Assembly: GCA_038065455.1 (NCBI GenBank)
Contig: JBBTQX010000002.1
Coordinates: forward strand, 6,779-70,778
Source: Patescibacteria group bacterium
GTDB taxonomy: Bacteria; Patescibacteriota; Minisyncoccia; UBA6257; GWB1-50-10
Direction of reading: 5' to 3'
Length of the DNA: 64,000 bases
A program made the position numbers and the translations under genes. The notes beneath the pieces were generated by a model. The model made no database searches, was not told where the DNA came from, and worked only from the letters and a program-made list of their open reading frames with translations. Numbering within the stretch: position 1 is the first letter of the stretch; each line of letters opens with the position of its first letter. Positions 8,328-35,424 of this stretch are shown piece by piece.

Positions 8328-8390
8328 ACCGGGCAGTAGAAATTCGATCAGTTCTTCTGCCGTGTTGCAATCGAATTTTCACTGCCCGGT
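8328..8390. repeat. family-2 inverted-repeat element, short copy
   Basis: accgggcagtagaaattcgat ... atcgaattttcactgcccggt: 21-nt arms, 19/21 complementary. The grpE stop codon lies inside the right arm. Confidence 0.75.
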
Positions 8391-8864: not shown

Positions 8865-9009
8865 ACCAGGTTAGTAGAAACTCGATTGCAAATTAACGAT
8901 TTGCTGAATCGAATCATGATTAATATATTTAATTTGACCTTTCATATTATATTTTTCCATATCCATTGTTAATTTGACGGCAAATCTAATCGAGTTTTCA
9001 CTACCTGGC
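8865..9009. repeat. family-2 inverted-repeat element, 145-nt copy (MITE-like)
   Basis: accaggttagtagaaactcgatt ... aatcgagttttcactacctggc with an AT-rich interior. Fills the whole hrcA-grpE spacer and abuts the grpE ATG. Confidence 0.75.
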
Positions 9010-17645: not shown

Positions 17646-19491
17646 TGATTCGGTTATTATAGTACCACAAGAAAACGTCCCTAGCCACCGGCACGACGTT
17701 CAAACTGCCTTCCCGCGCATTTTCCACGAGTATTAAAATGGCGATTTTGGGGTCGTCATAAGGAGCGAAGCCGACGAAAAACGCGTTGGTCTTCGTGTTG
17801 TTCGAAACCTGGGCCGAGCCGGTTTTGGCGGCGACCGGAATCGGCAAGTCATGCAGAAGATAGGAAGTGCCGTAATCCCGAATCACGCCTTCGCGCATCC
17901 CCTTCCTCACTTCCGCGAGCGCCGGACCGATCTCGGCCGAAAGGTCGCGGAGAATCGCCGCCTCGTTCTTCAAAATCGTCTCGCCTTTGATATTTTTTAT
18001 TTCATTCATCACGCGCGGCTTGTTCAGCTTGCCGCCATTTGCAACTGCATTTATGTAATTCAGAAGTTCGATGGGCGTCACCGAAAAATCGCCCTGGCCA
18101 ATCGAGACGTTGAAAGTATCTCCCAAGCGCCATGGCTCGCCTTTTACTCTTTCTTTCCATGCTGGATCCGGCAAGAAACCAGCATCCTCCCCCGTTAAAT
18201 CTATATTCGTCTTTTCGTCGAGACCGAAATTATGCCACCACTTTTTCAATCTTTCTATTCCCAAGCCTTTCTGGTCTCCGAAACCGCCGCCCACGGAATA
18301 GAAATAGACATTCGAGGAACGAGCCAGAGCCGAATATAAATCCACCCAACCCTGCGGCCGCCAATCCAAAAATCGGCTCGGATGCTCCGGGTTGTAGGGA
18401 TTCGGAACATCGAGATAGCCCGGCGAATAAATTTGATGTTTCGGATCCAAGATGCCTTCCGTAAGCGCCGCGGTTCCCACCAGGGGCTTAATGGTCGAAC
18501 CGGGATTGTAAATACCGGAAATCGCCCGATTAAAGAGCGGCTGATTGGCAGAGGTAAGATACTTTCCTATTTTATTCGAATCGAACGAAGGAATATTCAC
18601 AAGAGAAAGAACTTCGCCGTTCCGCGGGTCCATCGCTATCGCAAGGCCGGTATCCCGGCCCAAATCGCGAAGCGCTTGGCTCAAGCGGTCGTAGATATAT
18701 GTCTGGAGATCCCGATCAATAAAAGATGTAAGATTGTTGCCTGGAATCGGCTCCTGAACCGTTCTTTCTTTTTCGGTTCCGCCCACTGCGTTCGTGAGCG
18801 CAACCTTCTCACCGCTCGTTCCCCGAAGATATCCGTCGTAAAAAGCCTCGAGACCATTCCGCCCGACCTGGTCGTCGATATGCAACTCCGAATCTTTCTT
18901 CATATCACTCTTGTTTGCCAAACCAGTATAGCCGACTACGTGGGAAAATTTGAAAAGCGGCGTTTGAACGCGCCGGAACGACGGGTCTATCTCCAAGCCC
19001 GGAAGATTCGCGGCGGAGAGGGATACTAATTCATCGTGATCAAGATCGGGTTTCAAAAGAAATCGGTCGGTCAAATTCCAGTCCCGTTCCTCGAGAGCTC
19101 CAAGCACCTCGTTCTCATATAAACCCAAAGTATTCAAAACATCTCCAATTGCCATTCGCCTTTCCGCAGAAGTTTTCGGAAGAGATTTCGGAACGAGATA
19201 GGCATCGAAAGCGGGCTCGTTTTCGACCATAGCCTTTCCGAAACGGTCGTAGATAATCCCCCGCGGAGCGGGCTCCGTTTTTATATCGCTCATATTCGCC
19301 GTAGCGCGCCGGGAATAGGGTTCATGATTCAAGACCGCCAAGTTCACAAATTGGGCGAAGACGGCAAGAAAAACCAGCGCGACCAAGATGATGAAATTCC
19401 TGAAAACCCGGTCCGTGAGAGGAATTTCCAAAAGGTCTTCCTCGACCGTTCGGTCGGTCAGAATGTCTTCCAGATTAAGCTCGGGATTCAT
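17638..19491 (-). CDS. mrdA: penicillin-binding protein 2 (elongasome transpeptidase)
   Basis: STIKP (SxxK), SSN, KTGSA motifs. Follows mreBCD. Confidence 0.88.
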   Translation of the reverse strand: MNPELNLEDILTDRTVEEDLLEIPLTDRVFRNFIILVALVFLAVFAQFVNLAVLNHEPYSRRATANMSDIKTEPAPRGIIYDRFGKAMVENEPAFDAYLVPKSLPKTSAERRMAIGDVLNTLGLYENEVLGALEERDWNLTDRFLLKPDLDHDELVSLSAANLPGLEIDPSFRRVQTPLFKFSHVVGYTGLANKSDMKKDSELHIDDQVGRNGLEAFYDGYLRGTSGEKVALTNAVGGTEKERTVQEPIPGNNLTSFIDRDLQTYIYDRLSQALRDLGRDTGLAIAMDPRNGEVLSLVNIPSFDSNKIGKYLTSANQPLFNRAISGIYNPGSTIKPLVGTAALTEGILDPKHQIYSPGYLDVPNPYNPEHPSRFLDWRPQGWVDLYSALARSSNVYFYSVGGGFGDQKGLGIERLKKWWHNFGLDEKTNIDLTGEDAGFLPDPAWKERVKGEPWRLGDTFNVSIGQGDFSVTPIELLNYINAVANGGKLNKPRVMNEIKNIKGETILKNEAAILRDLSAEIGPALAEVRKGMREGVIRDYGTSYLLHDLPIPVAAKTGSAQVSNNTKTNAFFVGFAPYDDPKIAILILVENAREGSLNVVPVARDVFLWYYNNRING

Positions 19492-19616
19492 CCCGTTAGA
19501 AACAGGATGCGCTTAACAAGCACATCCGTCTAGATTCAAACGACTTTATTATTGCAATGTTCCCCTGTATTGTTTCCATGATATTTCTGAATTTGCCCGT
19601 TTCTAACGGGATTCAT
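19489..19616 (-). mobile_element. family-1 element, ORF-less copy D (MITE-like derivative of the GIY-YIG element)
   Basis: Gene-strand reading: ATGAATCCCGTTAGAAAC ... TGTTTCTAACGGG-ATG(mrdA). Shares the termini and subterminal hairpin of copies A-C. Confidence 0.75.
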
Positions 19617-20097
19617 GAAGATAACCGTATTTTCCAAAAAAATTCAAACAAAGCCAAAAAATCGAACCCAAAACCAGATTATAAACGACTTCGCCAAAAA
19701 CAAAACCGCCGGCAAAAACACTGCCGGCCGTAAATTTGAGCGCTCCGTAAAATATTACTGTTCCCAAGCCGACGGCCAAAAGAAAATCTTGGAAGGACCG
19801 GCCCGTGAAGAAGTTTCGCAGGAAGAAGATTGCAAGAATTATCAAAAGGAGTATGGCCCAAGGCAACATCCAAAAATCGGACAAAATCAAAGTTACCGCA
19901 AAAGCAAAAAACAGCAGAATATATAAAAAACCCGGCTTTATCCGTTTCTTGAAATAAGGTTCGAGAAGCAAGCCAGAGAAAAATATGAGCGCCAGATTGG
20001 GATTGATTCCGCCTAAACTCAAAATTCGGGTCATTCCCAAAAAAATCAAAAGTCCCAGGAAAAGGAGTACAAAAACGAAACGGAACAAATCTCCCAT
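19603..20097 (-). CDS. mreD: rod shape-determining protein MreD-like
   Basis: 164-aa polytopic membrane protein between mreC and mrdA. The last codons and the stop lie inside element copy D. Confidence 0.6.
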   Translation of the reverse strand: MGDLFRFVFVLLFLGLLIFLGMTRILSLGGINPNLALIFFSGLLLEPYFKKRIKPGFLYILLFFAFAVTLILSDFWMLPWAILLLIILAIFFLRNFFTGRSFQDFLLAVGLGTVIFYGALKFTAGSVFAGGFVFGEVVYNLVLGSIFWLCLNFFGKYGYLHESR

Positions 20098-28758: not shown

Positions 28759-28830
28759 ATACCCGGTATTACAATGTTTAGAAAAGTTGCTGGTTCATTT
28801 TTTTTTGATTAGGTTTGTAATACCGGGTAT
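28759..28830. repeat. perfect 16-bp inverted repeat in the murA / GIY-YIG divergent spacer
   Basis: atacccggtattacaa (28759-28774) and ttgtaataccgggtat (28815-28830), 40-nt T-rich loop. Confidence 0.7.
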
Positions 28831-28842
28831 ATTATTAAAGGT

Positions 28843-29130
28843 ATGTATCCCGTTAGAGACATTTCTATGTATTACAATTACGTTTTAAGAAGCAAAAAAG
28901 ATGGGAAATGGTATACTGGCTACACGAATGATCTACGGAAGCGCTTTAGCCAGCACAATAGCGATAAATTCCCTCAATGGACCAAAAATCGGGGTCCTTT
29001 TGAAATCATATACTATGAAGCCTGCAAAGATCTGCAAGATGCAAGGTCGAGGGAATATTATCTAAAAACAGGAATGGGTAAACGTTATATCAAAAATAGG
29101 CTAAAGCGCTTCCTGTCTCTAACGGGATGA
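28843..29130 (+). mobile_element. family-1 element, ORF-bearing copy A (GIY-YIG ORF bounded by 15-bp TIRs)
   Basis: ATCCCGTTAGAGACA (28847-28861) is the exact reverse complement of TGTCTCTAACGGGAT (29114-29128). The ORF spans TIR to TIR. Confidence 0.75.
28843..29130 (+). CDS. small GIY-YIG nuclease-domain protein (COG2827/UPF0213-like)
   Basis: YNYVLRS..GKWYTGYTNDLRKRFSQHN...E..YLK: GIY, YIG, Arg and Glu positions present. Alternative start at ATG 28867. Confidence 0.8.
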   Translation: MYPVRDISMYYNYVLRSKKDGKWYTGYTNDLRKRFSQHNSDKFPQWTKNRGPFEIIYYEACKDLQDARSREYYLKTGMGKRYIKNRLKRFLSLTG

Positions 29131-30371
29131 ACCTCAAAACCCGGCGAACTCTCTTTTACTTCTTCATTCTCATATTCGTCCTTGCGGGCGCTTATCTCCT
29201 CGCAACCGCCCAGGGGCTGGTCCTGGATTTCAAAAATCTGAAGATTACCGGCACTGGCGGGCTCTTTTTGAAGTACGTTCCGCCCGACGCGACTGTGGAA
29301 TTGAACGGCAAAAAAACCGATGTTTCGCCCGGCCTCGTTTCGAGCGGAATTTTCATCTCTAAATTAATTCCCGACGAATACCGGGTAAAGATTTCAAAAC
29401 CGGGCTTCTCTGCCTGGGAAAAGACACTCGCGGTTAAGAACGGCGCGGTGGCTTCGGCGAGCCAAATCAGGCTCTGGCCCGAAGTCTGGGATTTGAATGT
29501 CATTACGACGAGCTCCGTCCGGGATTTCCGGCTCACGGGTGCGGGTCTAGTACTCCAAGGAAAAAACGGAACTCTTCGGCTGGACGGATTTTCTTTGGGA
29601 AACAGGAGTGTCGCTTTGAGCGGGCCGGACTCGTCCCTCATCGTTACGACCGATGAAAAAGAAAATTTTGTAACCAATCTCGAAGATTTGTCACCCGCGC
29701 TCGATATCGTCCGGCTCTTTAATTCGCTGAAACAAAGCCAGTTGAATCTTCCCGGCACGATCATTCCTAAAAATTACTTCCTTCATCCCTTTAACGCCAA
29801 AATTCTCATCACGACCGGAAACGCGCTTTACTCGCTCGATATCAAAAGATTGAGACTTGAAAAACTGACCGATATGGCAGGAATTAAGAAGGCGGAATTA
29901 AGGGGAAACGAAATGTTTCTTTTCGATATGAAAGACAATATAACGACATTCAATCTTTTTCTCCAAACTGCCAGAATTTATGAATCGACCTCCACCGAAG
30001 CCATCGGAATAGGAGCGAGCCTGGCCGGCTTGCCGGCCCCCGACGGGAAAAAGATTTTTTTGCTTTCAAAAAACGACACGCTTTCTTTGAAAGTTTTGGA
30101 AAATTATTATGCCGACGGCGAAGTGAGAAAGGGCGATATGTGGCCCGTTTTTTCCGACCGGGGCAAAATAACGGATTTCAAATGGTTGAATGGCAATTCT
30201 AATTATGCGCTGGTACTTGCCGAAAAAAACTTGTTCATCGTTGAAACCGACCGGCGCACCCCGCAGAATATCCGACTCATATCCCAAGGAGTGGAAAAAT
30301 TCGCGACGGAGGGAAACGATCTCTATATCCTCAAAACCGACGGCACGCTTCTGAGGGCGAGTTTGAAGTAG
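29127..30371 (+). CDS. hypothetical membrane-anchored protein with a PEGA-like domain
   Basis: N-terminal TM. DATVELNGKKT...YRVKISKPGF resembles PEGA. The ATG overlaps the GIY-YIG TGA. Confidence 0.6.
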   Translation: MNLKTRRTLFYFFILIFVLAGAYLLATAQGLVLDFKNLKITGTGGLFLKYVPPDATVELNGKKTDVSPGLVSSGIFISKLIPDEYRVKISKPGFSAWEKTLAVKNGAVASASQIRLWPEVWDLNVITTSSVRDFRLTGAGLVLQGKNGTLRLDGFSLGNRSVALSGPDSSLIVTTDEKENFVTNLEDLSPALDIVRLFNSLKQSQLNLPGTIIPKNYFLHPFNAKILITTGNALYSLDIKRLRLEKLTDMAGIKKAELRGNEMFLFDMKDNITTFNLFLQTARIYESTSTEAIGIGASLAGLPAPDGKKIFLLSKNDTLSLKVLENYYADGEVRKGDMWPVFSDRGKITDFKWLNGNSNYALVLAEKNLFIVETDRRTPQNIRLISQGVEKFATEGNDLYILKTDGTLLRASLK

Positions 30372-33296: not shown

Positions 33297-33896
33297 TTAA
33301 CGCGAATAGAATTGGCCGACCACGTTTATATCGAAAGGTAGTTGCACTCCGGTAACGGGCGGTTTTGCCACGCACTCGCCTTTCAATTCCTCCGCTTTGA
33401 GCTTAAGCCACTCAGGCGGGGTGTATTGCTTCAACCGGAGTTGAATATCATCGAAAATCTTCGCCGAGCGGGATTCGGGCCGCACAGCAATAATGTCTTT
33501 AACCCTAACATAATAGGAAGGAATTGTCACTTTTCGGCCATTCACGTGGATATGGCCGTGGGAGACGAGCTGGCGGGCGATTCTCGGAGACTTCGCGAAT
33601 CCCAAAAGAAAAACCACGTGGTCGAGGCGGCTTTCGAGCTTGGTCATAATGCCGTCTTTGTCGGAATTCCGGAACATTCTCATCATCTGATGATTATTCA
33701 GCCCGTAAAGAATTTGGATTTTCTGTTTTTCCTGGAGCTGCTTTCCGAATTCGGAAACGGAGTGGCGCGCCTGGCCGTGCTGGCCCGGGCGGTAAGGATG
33801 GCGTACCATCGCGCACTTCGGCGAATTACAGCGGTCTCCCTTGAGGAAGAGTTTGATGCCCAGCGATCTTTCTTTTTTCTCTTTGATTCTTTTCAT
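33297..33896 (-). CDS. rpsD: 30S ribosomal protein S4
   Basis: S4 N-terminal Cys cluster (CNSPKC) and S4 RNA-binding domain. Start trimmed to ATG 33896; the track extension reads into the repeat. Confidence 0.9.
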   Translation of the reverse strand: MKRIKEKKERSLGIKLFLKGDRCNSPKCAMVRHPYRPGQHGQARHSVSEFGKQLQEKQKIQILYGLNNHQMMRMFRNSDKDGIMTKLESRLDHVVFLLGFAKSPRIARQLVSHGHIHVNGRKVTIPSYYVRVKDIIAVRPESRSAKIFDDIQLRLKQYTPPEWLKLKAEELKGECVAKPPVTGVQLPFDINVVGQFYSR

Positions 33897-34024
33897 CCCG
33901 TTTAGAGACAGGATACGCTTAAGAAGCATATCCGTGAAGCATTAGCCGATTCGACTTTATTGGATTCTATTGATTGTTTGATAATCATGTTATTCATAAG
34001 TTTGATGTCTCTAACGGGATTCAT
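33894..34024 (-). mobile_element. family-1 element, ORF-less copy B
   Basis: Gene-strand reading: ATGAATCCCGTTAGAGACA ... TGTCTCTAAACGGG-ATG(rpsD). Confidence 0.75.
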
Positions 34025-34030
34025 ATTTTT

Positions 34031-34175
34031 ACCAGGCAGTGAAAATGCGATTGCAAATCGTGATTGAATCGACGATTCTCGCTATTTCCAATGACCTTTT
34101 ATTTATATTCATATGTTTTGATATTATGATGGTTTTCGATTTGAATTCAATCTAATCGCATTTCTACTGCCTGGT
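34031..34175. repeat. family-2 inverted-repeat element, 145-nt copy
   Basis: accaggcagtgaaaatgcgatt ... aatcgcatttctactgcctggt. The interior is alignable with the copy at 8865-9009. The right end overlaps the rpsK stop codon. Confidence 0.75.
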
Positions 34176-35181: not shown

Positions 35182-35298
35182 TTATCCTTGTCTTTGTTTA
35201 TGCCTCGGGTTCTTGGCACATATGACGTAAACCCGCCCTTTTCGACGGACGGTCTTGCAAACGCTGCAGATTTTTTTTACCGATGCTCTGACTTTCAT
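35182..35298 (-). CDS. rpmJ: 50S ribosomal protein L36
   Basis: Hand-translated: [38 protein letters not shown] (38 aa). Absent from the ORF track because it is too short. Confidence 0.9.
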
Positions 35299-35424
35299 CC
35301 CGTTAGAGACAGGATACGCTTAAAAAGCGCATCCGTGATATGTCGCTTGGTTTGATTATTCCGACCTGTTGGTTATTCATATTGATACATTATTCAAAAT
35401 TTGTTTGTCTCTAACGGGATTCAT
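35296..35424 (-). mobile_element. family-1 element, ORF-less copy C
   Basis: Gene-strand reading: ATGAATCCCGTTAGAGACA ... TGTCTCTAACGGG-ATG(rpmJ). Confidence 0.75.

Follow-up and report, generated by a model that had tools for sequence, protein, structure and literature searches.

A start-codon-associated family of small inverted-repeat elements encoding a GIY-YIG nuclease in Patescibacteria

The Ssn nucleases, 94-residue single-domain GIY-YIG proteins, bind a hairpin-forming repeat (NTS/SRM) on one strand of single-stranded DNA (ssDNA) and cleave it just 5' of the hairpin, while being inactive on double-stranded DNA and on RNA (Chenal et al. 2025, Nat Commun, PMC11893778). According to the accessible portions of that paper, to which all comparisons with Ssn made below are confined, 42% of homologues have the repeat on either side of the ssn gene, and the repeat itself occurs in hundreds of scattered copies; the authors point to a layout resembling that of an insertion sequence (IS), propose domestication and draw an analogy with IS200/IS605-REP/RAYT. 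Here we analyze a 64-kb window, that is, the whole stretch of DNA under study, taken from a 119-kb contig of a Patescibacteria metagenome-assembled genome, in which a gene of the GIY-YIG type is carried on the + strand by a small element with its own terminal inverted repeats. This element belongs to an abundant and widespread family of tiny inverted-repeat elements in the Candidate Phyla Radiation (CPR)/Patescibacteria, the sole gene of which encodes a GIY-YIG nuclease. The family comprises copies with and without this open reading frame (ORF), and both forms are located precisely at the start codons of host genes, in the orientation of the host gene.

Like Ssn, the element encodes a single-domain nuclease of about 94 residues, and its gene is flanked on both sides by an oriented, hairpin-forming, dispersed repeat. 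As described in the accessible text, the Ssn repeats are self-contained hairpins of about 28 nt, whereas the flanking repeats of the element are the two arms of one closing stem, complemented by a sub-terminal stem, and the codons of the gene form part of the repeats. Also unlike Ssn, the nearest characterized relatives of the element protein are UPF0213 proteins: its best matches in both sequence and fold are the minimal, single-domain UPF0213/Slx1-like proteins (BH0048, 1zg2; EF2693, 1ywl; YazA). Within the structure-specific Slx1 family, UPF0213 represents the bacterial branch; it has been treated as a vertically inherited, repair-type and non-selfish group (PMC1564403). In contrast to UPF0213 genes as they appear in the literature, the gene studied here is the cargo of a multi-copy element.

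The element shares with MITEs (miniature inverted-repeat transposable elements), such as Correia and the Rickettsia palindromic elements, its terminal inverted repeats, a short target duplication, a high copy number and presence/absence polymorphism, as well as the occurrence of small ORF-less copies that have their termini in common with an ORF-bearing parent. Unlike the IS parents of MITEs, however, this parent is smaller than 300 bp and encodes only a nuclease of about 90 residues, with no DDE, HUH, serine or tyrosine transposase. Moreover, unlike MITEs, its copies lie almost exclusively on start codons, in one orientation, and bring along built-in stop and start codons. It is not a classical IS either: the sole ORF encodes a GIY-YIG protein, which belongs to no known transposase class, and no longer element with these termini is found in 1.68 Mb of retrieved DNA. 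With IS200/IS605 and REP/RAYT, the element has in common a fold apparently selected on one strand, oriented insertion at a short target, and dispersed hairpin derivatives. The latter systems rely on HUH Y1 transposases that act through covalent intermediates, and they have neither terminal inverted repeats nor a target duplication, whereas the element combines 14-bp terminal repeats with a duplication and encodes a GIY-YIG hydrolase and no HUH protein. Free-standing GIY-YIG homing genes (T4 Seg, I-TevI type) are, like the element, selfish nuclease genes inserted between host genes, and some of them are reported to rely on host expression signals (PMC2988022). Homing enzymes have a separate DNA-binding domain and one cognate site and produce no duplication; in contrast, the element protein is single-domain, and the element occurs at many unrelated genes and duplicates its target. 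Additionally, a 2024 survey in J Bacteriol described CPR rRNA-gene insertions, distinct from both group I and group II introns, that contain GIY-YIG ORFs and occupy several sites (PMC11270868). These insertions may belong to the same element family, tolerated in rRNA.

An earlier first-pass annotation, made from the sequence alone, had proposed the locus as a member of an undescribed family of mobile elements. A full-text literature search, including a search for the literal repeat sequence, returned no description of the element, nor of its start-codon targeting, target duplication, empty sites, deletion derivatives or translational takeover; for the IS-like layout of a nuclease gene plus repeats, on the other hand, Ssn constitutes a precedent (PMC11893778). 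A text search of the Ssn paper gave no mention of a target duplication or of Patescibacteria/CPR, and its accessible portions do not describe start-codon targeting, empty sites, deletion derivatives or translational takeover.

The element in the window consists of a 95-codon GIY-YIG ORF bracketed by terminal inverted repeats (ATCCCGTTAGAGACA / TGTCTCTAACGGGAT), in the layout AAAGGT ATGTA TCCCGTTAGAGACA TTTCT ATG TAT TAC ... AAG CGC TTC C TGTCTCTAACGGG ATGAA CCTC. Its features are as follows.

28843..29131, + strand: complete ORF-bearing element including the flanking pentanucleotides, ATGTA-TCCCGTTAGAGACA...TGTCTCTAACGGG-ATGAA
28843..29130, + strand: GIY-YIG ORF of 95 codons, the TGA of which (29128-29130) overlaps the host ATG (29127-29129)
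28848..28861, + strand: left terminal inverted repeat TCCCGTTAGAGACA, 14 nt, coding for ORF residues PVRD
28937..28946, + strand: 5' arm of the sub-terminal long-range stem, GGAAGCGCTT (LRKRF codons), with covariation at synonymous positions
29104..29113, + strand: 3' arm of the sub-terminal stem, AAGCGCTTCC (KRFL codons), abutting the right terminal repeat, with covariation
29114..29127, + strand: right terminal inverted repeat TGTCTCTAACGGGA, 14 nt, coding for the C-terminal SLTG
29127..30371, + strand: host gene, 414 residues, with a weak PEGA-domain match and a start codon rebuilt by the element

The 13-mer CCCGTTAGAGACA occupies 28849-28861, and the stretch 29114-29126 is its exact reverse complement. 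Adding the adjacent AT/AT yields the exact 15-bp repeats at 28847-28861 and 29114-29128 that the first-pass annotation had reported. When up to two mismatches are allowed, this 13-mer occurs eight times in the window, as four inverted pairs, compared with 0.94 expected occurrences, and none of 100 shuffled sequences reached eight. The first-pass annotation had moreover placed both ends of the ORF within the repeats and its stop codon over the start of the next gene. The end in the right repeat and the TGA/ATG overlap are correct, but the first ATG is situated 4 nt beyond the 15-bp repeat. It occupies the expected position of the original start codon of the host gene, and the GIY-YIG domain itself begins at a second, in-frame ATG (28867). 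The right repeat TGTCTCTAACGGGA carries a TAA in one frame and donates the A of the host ATG. The left flank of this copy, ATGTA, is a degenerate version of the host start and matches the right ATGAA imperfectly.

By sequence and fold, the nuclease is a UPF0213/Slx1-like GIY-YIG protein. It matches PF01541 over residues 9-76 (E=5.5e-16; 59.1 bits vs a cut-off of 22.6), which bears out the GIY-YIG assignment that the first-pass annotation had put up for a profile check, and it is of the UPF0213/COG2827 type. Across the query and 120 homologues, the catalytic residues Y13, Y24, R34, H38, E59 and N85 are conserved in 100% and Y11 in 98% of the sequences. The protein is 87-95 residues long and consists of a single domain without accessory domain; an AlphaFold model (pLDDT 86.9) predicts a minimal beta-beta-alpha-beta-alpha core followed by a long basic C-terminal helix. 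This conserved helix (GMGKRYLKNRLKRFLSLTG) is encoded by codons that double as sub-terminal stem and terminal repeat. Sequence relatives of known structure are the UPF0213 proteins 1zg2 (E=3.3e-12) and 1ywl (E=7e-5). Likewise, 1zg2 ranks first in a Foldseek search, followed by Slx1-Slx4 chains (root-mean-square deviation of 2.3 Å over 70 columns), with I-TevI reaching E=0.65. Against the group I intron endonuclease model TIGR01453 the protein reaches 19.6 bits, far short of the cut-off of 56. Sequence identity amounts to 44% with Bacillus subtilis YazA and to 37% with a stand-alone GIY-YIG protein of Sinorhizobium (E=4e-5), to which the element protein is less close than to UPF0213 proteins.

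Three further copies in the window have the same termini and no ORF. Without their flanks they measure about 120 bp each (~19491-19611, 33896-34019 and 35298-35419).

19487..19616, - strand: ORF-less copy 1 with both ATGAA repeats, between an mreD-like gene and PBP2; site empty in L249 and L250, filled in L252
33892..34024, - strand: ORF-less copy 2, ATGAA on either flank, immediately preceding rpsD, with a 1-nt insertion in one arm; site empty in L123, L081, L028 and L005
35294..35424, - strand: ORF-less copy 3, ATGAA on either flank, in the infA/rpmJ interval; site empty in L123 and L005, filled in L081 and L028

In host-gene orientation, the three copies share the structure ATGAA-TCCCGTTAGAGACA...hairpin-TGTCTCTAACGGG-ATGAA and end exactly on the ATG of PBP2 (19491), rpsD (33896) and rpmJ (35298), respectively, confirming that they are set identically against start codons, as had been claimed for them. 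The stop codons said to be built into the repeats are real and are used: the upstream mreD-like ORF terminates at the TAG within CCCGTTAG of the 19.5-kb copy, and the mini-ORFs of family members end at repeat stops. The mreD-like ORF (19603-20097) thereby has a new C-terminus, ...HESR, contributed by the left repeat of the element. At the other end of a copy, rpsD is called mechanically as a 210-codon ORF (33297-33929) that starts within the element, the true start being at 33896.

Recurrence of the repeats outside the window had been named in advance as a critical point, and it is extensive. All counts of family copies given here cover the loci among the matches listed. A paired-terminus pattern search retrieved the ORF-less form from at least 116 loci in species-representative genomes, nearly all of them CPR, including Yanofsky-, Harrison-, Jorgensen-, Lipton-, Terry-, Taylor-, Levy-, Berkel-, Nomura- and Brennerbacteria among others; several matches often came from a single genome. 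The ORF-bearing form, defined by the same termini 240-270 bp apart, was recovered from at least 120 metagenome loci, and 106 of 120 long copies retain an ORF of at least 70 codons. ORF-bearing elements measure about 275-285 bp and ORF-less elements 107-134 bp (mostly about 115-125 bp). Accordingly, repeat pairs in the 1.68 Mb of retrieved DNA fall mainly into two size classes, 100-149 bp (n=132) and 240-309 bp (n=125), with 14 pairs below 100 bp, a single one at 150-239 bp and none 310-6000 bp apart, indicating that the GIY-YIG gene is the only gene enclosed by these termini. A larger parent element carrying a transposase was rejected on the same absence of pairs 310-6000 bp apart. A phage-borne element was likewise rejected, as the ORF-less pattern had no match in 2.9 million viral contigs. 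At E<=1e-5, 3337 homologues of the nuclease were found. Among the best 120 of these 3337, 98 have the C-terminus SL(T/N)G, which the right repeat encodes, and 73 begin with M.PVR[DN], corresponding to the host ATG plus the left repeat. When multi-locus copies of one identical nuclease were sought, nuclease P0034 was found on at least 24 contigs, all of which represent the same locus of one population.

Empty orthologous sites exist in close relatives for all four window copies, which settles in the affirmative the presence/absence polymorphism that the first-pass annotation had put forward as a check. At the infA/rpmJ junction, the relative L123 reads AAGTTTT ATGAA AGTCAGAG, whereas the window reads AAGTTTT ATGAA-element-ATGAA AGTCAGAG; the two are 91-95% identical at the nucleotide level across infA-rpmJ-rpsM-rpsK-rpsD, and the rpsD site is empty in L123 as well. 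The PBP2 site is empty in L249 and L250, the PBP2 proteins of which are 92% and 75% identical, respectively, to that of the window; it is filled in L252 (PBP2 ~100%). The site of the ORF-bearing copy is empty in L124-L127 (MurA 95% and 88% identical), in which the spacer between murA and the host gene is 23 nt long and reads ...TTATTAAAGCT ATGGA ACTCAAAACC. On the other hand, a nuclease 85% identical to that of the window is present at the same murA site in the more distant L141 (MurA 82%), and this patchy occupancy points to precise loss or to transfer by recombination. The empty sites of the relatives indicate that insertion is precise and that ATGAA is duplicated, thus supplying the target site and duplication that had been sought through them. 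The duplication can be read as 5 bp, ATGAA, or as 4 bp, TGAA, if the last base of the 14-bp repeat provides the A of the new ATG.

This duplication is not confined to one target sequence. Flank pairs in ORF-less copies are ATGAA/ATGAA (n=40), ATGGA/ATGGA (n=9) and ATGAG/ATGAG (n=3), and an identical ATGNN is present on both flanks of 62 copies. The flanking repeat changes in step with the site on both sides, as expected of a target duplication. The target is (A)TGRR, of which 4-5 bp, typically ATGAA, are duplicated; the 62 reconstructed targets have no further conserved positions apart from an upstream A-richness, and no Shine-Dalgarno block. A C/G variant of the terminal base pair gives rise to GTG starts. 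Tandem copies with one common ATGAA were observed in L115 (5263-5661, an ORF-bearing copy directly followed by an ORF-less one) and in L006, L032, L034, L049 and L101, showing that the regenerated target is open to repeat insertion. In L026, two ORF-less copies that are about 90% identical occupy different loci of one contig and differ by a compensatory change in the hairpin. Taken together, the elements are real and recently active insertions. At the PBP2 site, the native start ATGAATCCCGA (window 19487-19500 compared with L249 ~896-910) resembles the left end of the element, ATGAATCCCGT, because of which the direct repeat there is effectively 10 nt long. This resemblance may be due to chance or to a microhomology favoring insertion.

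The association with start codons was quantified by orienting the ORF-less copies solely by their sub-terminal hairpin and by scoring as a gene start any ORF of at least 60 codons beginning at 0 to +3 nt of the hairpin-proximal end. Such an ORF starts at the right end of 90 of 112 ORF-less copies (80%) and of 62 of 96 ORF-bearing copies (65%). In the opposite direction the corresponding numbers are 5 of 114 and 0 of 98, and 32 of 504 random positions score. The host genes are diverse housekeeping genes, among them those for L2, L9, L17, L18, L24, L35, L36, S2, RpoA, SSB, FtsZ, RNase J, RuvC, topoisomerase I and PBP2. Many of the targeted CPR genes have a TATACT-like box only about 7-12 nt 5' of the ATG and no Shine-Dalgarno-like block. 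This arrangement suggests mRNAs that have a very short leader or none at all, a point relevant to the use of a rebuilt start codon.

Both forms of the element appear to be laid out for translation. The host's original ATG is situated 6 nt before the left repeat of ORF-bearing copies, and in 35 of the 42 copies having a left start codon it is in frame and open to the element's own TGA or TAA; the MNPVRD... N-termini of the homologues fit a nuclease ORF that is read in frame from the host ATG. Two subfamilies differ in how the ORF ends. In subfamily A (n=46), which includes the window copy, the protein ends in ...KRFLSLTG and the stop is the TGA overlapping the host ATG, while in subfamily B (n=38) it ends in ...KFFFAKGF and the stop is a TAA in the right repeat, 7 nt before the host start. 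Examples of subfamily B are L129, L138, L139, L166 and L117 (1531-1815), which carry the motif WYIGSTKDLRKRIL; this subfamily often has C/G terminal bases, resulting in GTG or TTG host starts. The right end of the element rebuilds the host start codon (GGG-ATGAA).

In ORF-less copies, a frame ending at either of the built-in stops is open for at least 30 codons in 64 of 97 cases, compared with 29.2 +/- 4.3 (maximum 45) in 300 shuffles of the interiors and 37 for reverse-complemented interiors. Only 8 of the 97 are open over this length in the frame that matches the phase of the host gene. The mini-ORF starts at the host ATG or at an internal ATG that is a relic of the nuclease's own start. Judged from these frames, selection would favor translation of an upstream ORF that terminates at the host start and hands over by termination-reinitiation.

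The terminal repeats and the sub-terminal stem are maintained as base-paired structures. At position 10 of the terminal repeat, 98 copies have G:C, 15 have A:T and 4 have a mismatch; as terminal base pair, 103 have T:A and 11 have C:G. RNAalifold applied to 82 ORF-less copies recovered both stems, with compensatory double changes at 11 of 24 pairs. The hairpin of ORF-less copies adjoins the gene-proximal repeat and covaries freely (GGTCGCC/GGCGACC, GGTTGCG/CGCAACC, GGAAGCGC/GCGCTTCC and GGATGCGC/GCGTATCC). In 96% of subfamily A copies, the KRFL codons, in the 10 nt directly 5' of the right repeat, pair with LRKRF codons about 165 nt upstream. This long-range stem covaries at synonymous third positions, one pair being G:C in 34 and A:T in 29 copies (with one mismatch) and another C:G in 50 and T:A in 11. 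No such sub-terminal pairing was detected in subfamily B with the arm definition used. The ORF-less form is an internal-deletion derivative of the ORF-bearing one, its hairpin being the long-range stem minus the approximately 150 bp between the arms. Non-Watson-Crick pairs on the sense strand are G.T in 30 and A.C in 7 instances in the hairpin, and 13 and 2, respectively, at repeat position 13. This excess of G.T points to a fold selected on one strand, either as mRNA or as sense-strand ssDNA.

Outside the stems, ORF-less interiors are poorly conserved. One ORF-less subfamily (L011, L012, L027, L033, L054 and L058) has an internal partial right terminus, TCTTAACGGG, accompanied by the conserved motif AGCGGTGGC; a second internal hairpin, GCCGTTAAAACGGC, is found in other subfamilies. 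A known structured RNA, intron or riboswitch was considered and rejected: the only Rfam match in the window at gathering thresholds is a tRNA gene at 1015-1101, an ORF-less copy has no match at E<=1, and the elements are too small for a group I or II core. The presence of copies only at gene starts, and not inside ORFs, argues against splicing.

Taken as a whole, these data are probably best explained by a CPR start-codon element that is expressed from host signals and is moved by its nuclease via a folded single strand. One strand of the element would fold into the terminal stem with the sub-terminal stem stacked directly on it. By analogy with Ssn and Slx1, the encoded nuclease may recognize this fold on ssDNA and cut at the element boundary or at the target, after which host repair or ligation would complete excision and insertion. 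The nuclease itself, acting in an Ssn-like manner, would then be the mobilizing enzyme. Selection would purge insertions at all positions other than start codons, at which expression is restored. There, the host's original ATG and upstream signals lie in front of the element and would drive the nuclease ORF, while the host gene would be translated by termination-reinitiation from a stop that overlaps its start (ATGA) or from a TAA 7 nt before it. More tentatively, the family may constitute a new class of transposable element, perhaps the smallest self-sufficient one at less than 300 bp, in which a nuclease of about 90 residues acts on a folded strand with the help of host repair; it would be a parasite of start sites that uses the host's start codon for its nuclease and returns a rebuilt one through the stop-start overlap, and the mobile ancestral state of the domesticated Ssn/NTS.

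Several considerations weigh against this explanation. GIY-YIG enzymes are hydrolytic and, to our knowledge, not known for strand transfer, and a 4-5-bp target duplication is the usual trace of DDE transposases. The SRM consensus of Ssn, HGTCWYN(0-2)YYVSBRHN(0-5)WNVSBRGN(0-2)RNCYNB, has no match on either strand of the window. No ORF of at least 60 codons could be detected after about one-third of the ORF-bearing and one-fifth of the ORF-less copies. Translational coupling cannot be universal, since about one-third of the ORF-less mini-ORFs stop early. The regenerated ATG lacks a preceding Shine-Dalgarno-like motif. The G.T bias of the sense strand fits mRNA and sense-strand ssDNA alike, and the patchy distribution at the murA site could be the result of recombination rather than of excision. 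Finally, the copies are related by descent, and the counts given above therefore represent non-independent events.

The main alternative holds that an unrelated transposase encoded elsewhere, for instance of the DDE type, mobilizes the inverted-repeat elements in trans, and that the GIY-YIG gene is a passenger on a MITE, as a homing-like or addiction gene. A duplication of 4-5 bp combined with short terminal repeats is a classic DDE signature, no GIY-YIG transposase is known and none turned up in the literature search, and at least two other unrelated small inverted-repeat elements lie in the window, implying that other transposition systems act or have acted in this genome. We nevertheless regard transposition in trans as unlikely, considering that the 1.68 Mb contain no repeat pair of 310-6000 bp and the GIY-YIG ORF is the only gene ever enclosed, that the ends of this ORF are written in both terminal repeats in more than 100 copies, that covariation at synonymous sites couples the ORF to the terminal structure, and that the ORF-less form is derived from the ORF-bearing one by internal deletion and not the reverse.

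Two further explanations assign the repeats a function for the host. In one of these, the element is a domesticated, Ssn-like system that no longer transposes and in which the nuclease cuts ssDNA at the repeats, thereby policing incoming or replicating DNA, a role proposed for Neisseria SsnA/NTS in the accessible portions of the Ssn paper (PMC11893778). Strand-specific cleavage of ssDNA at hairpin repeats flanking a nuclease gene has its precedent there, the repeats adjoin housekeeping genes, and the fold is apparently selected on one strand. Such a system is, however, difficult to reconcile with insertions that are missing in relatives at 91-95% identity and are bordered by an exact target duplication, with tandem insertions at a regenerated target, and with many nuclease copies that each lie at a different gene start rather than at a single conserved locus; nor does a host function explain the strict start-codon placement and the design of the frames. 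Complete domestication thus seems quite improbable, although this reading and the start-codon element favored above are partly compatible and do not fully exclude each other. According to the other explanation, the fold is an RNA-level cis-regulatory leader before essential genes, such as an RNase III site or a translational operator, with its spread being secondary and the nuclease incidental. The G.U-type bias of the sense strand, the constant position directly 5' of start codons in a constant orientation, the open mini-ORFs and the stems kept by covariation would all suit a leader of this kind. Against it stand the lack of any Rfam match, even at E<=1, the close relatives that have the same genes without the element, the target duplication and tandems, which are signatures of insertion at the DNA level, and the poor conservation of ORF-less interiors besides the stems. 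We therefore hold a purely regulatory origin to be very improbable. An RNA role of the fold that makes insertions tolerable is nonetheless compatible with a nuclease-moved start-codon element, and is partly included in it.

If a nuclease-moved start-codon element is indeed what these copies represent, part of the stand-alone GIY-YIG family (UPF0213/COG2827/Ssn-like) would have a role as selfish elements. The target duplication, empty sites and deletion derivatives would then constitute comparative evidence that modules of a GIY-YIG gene plus repeats are mobile, which in the accessible portions of the Ssn paper appears only as a hypothesis. The start codon itself would be a new niche for mobile elements, involving translational takeover and hand-back, and this niche would explain the persistence of the family in ribosomal-protein and cell-division operons of the streamlined CPR genomes. 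The elements also matter for annotation, as hundreds of insertions shift apparent gene starts, add spurious N-termini (rpsD) and alter upstream C-termini (mreD-like gene). Furthermore, they offer a case of dual coding in which a nucleic-acid fold is coupled to codons, with synonymous covariation between sites about 55 residues apart. Should the nuclease be hairpin-guided and ssDNA-specific like Ssn, the family would supply many natural pairs of enzyme and site as possible tools.

Two other types of small inverted-repeat element were observed next to the copies described here. A miniature element of 66 bp (28762-28827), unrelated to the GIY-YIG element, is located between the latter and murA. 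It has perfect 13-bp termini (CCCGGTATTACAA / TTGTAATACCGGG) with TATA on both sides, is missing from the collinear spacer of L124-L127, and has no other copy in the window. The third type, of 137 bp (34035-34171), lies between rpsK and the ORF-less copy before rpsD and is missing in L123. Its termini, GGCAGTGAAAATGCGATT, have two mismatches between the arms, and terminus-like matches to it occur at 8369-8386 and 8988-9005.

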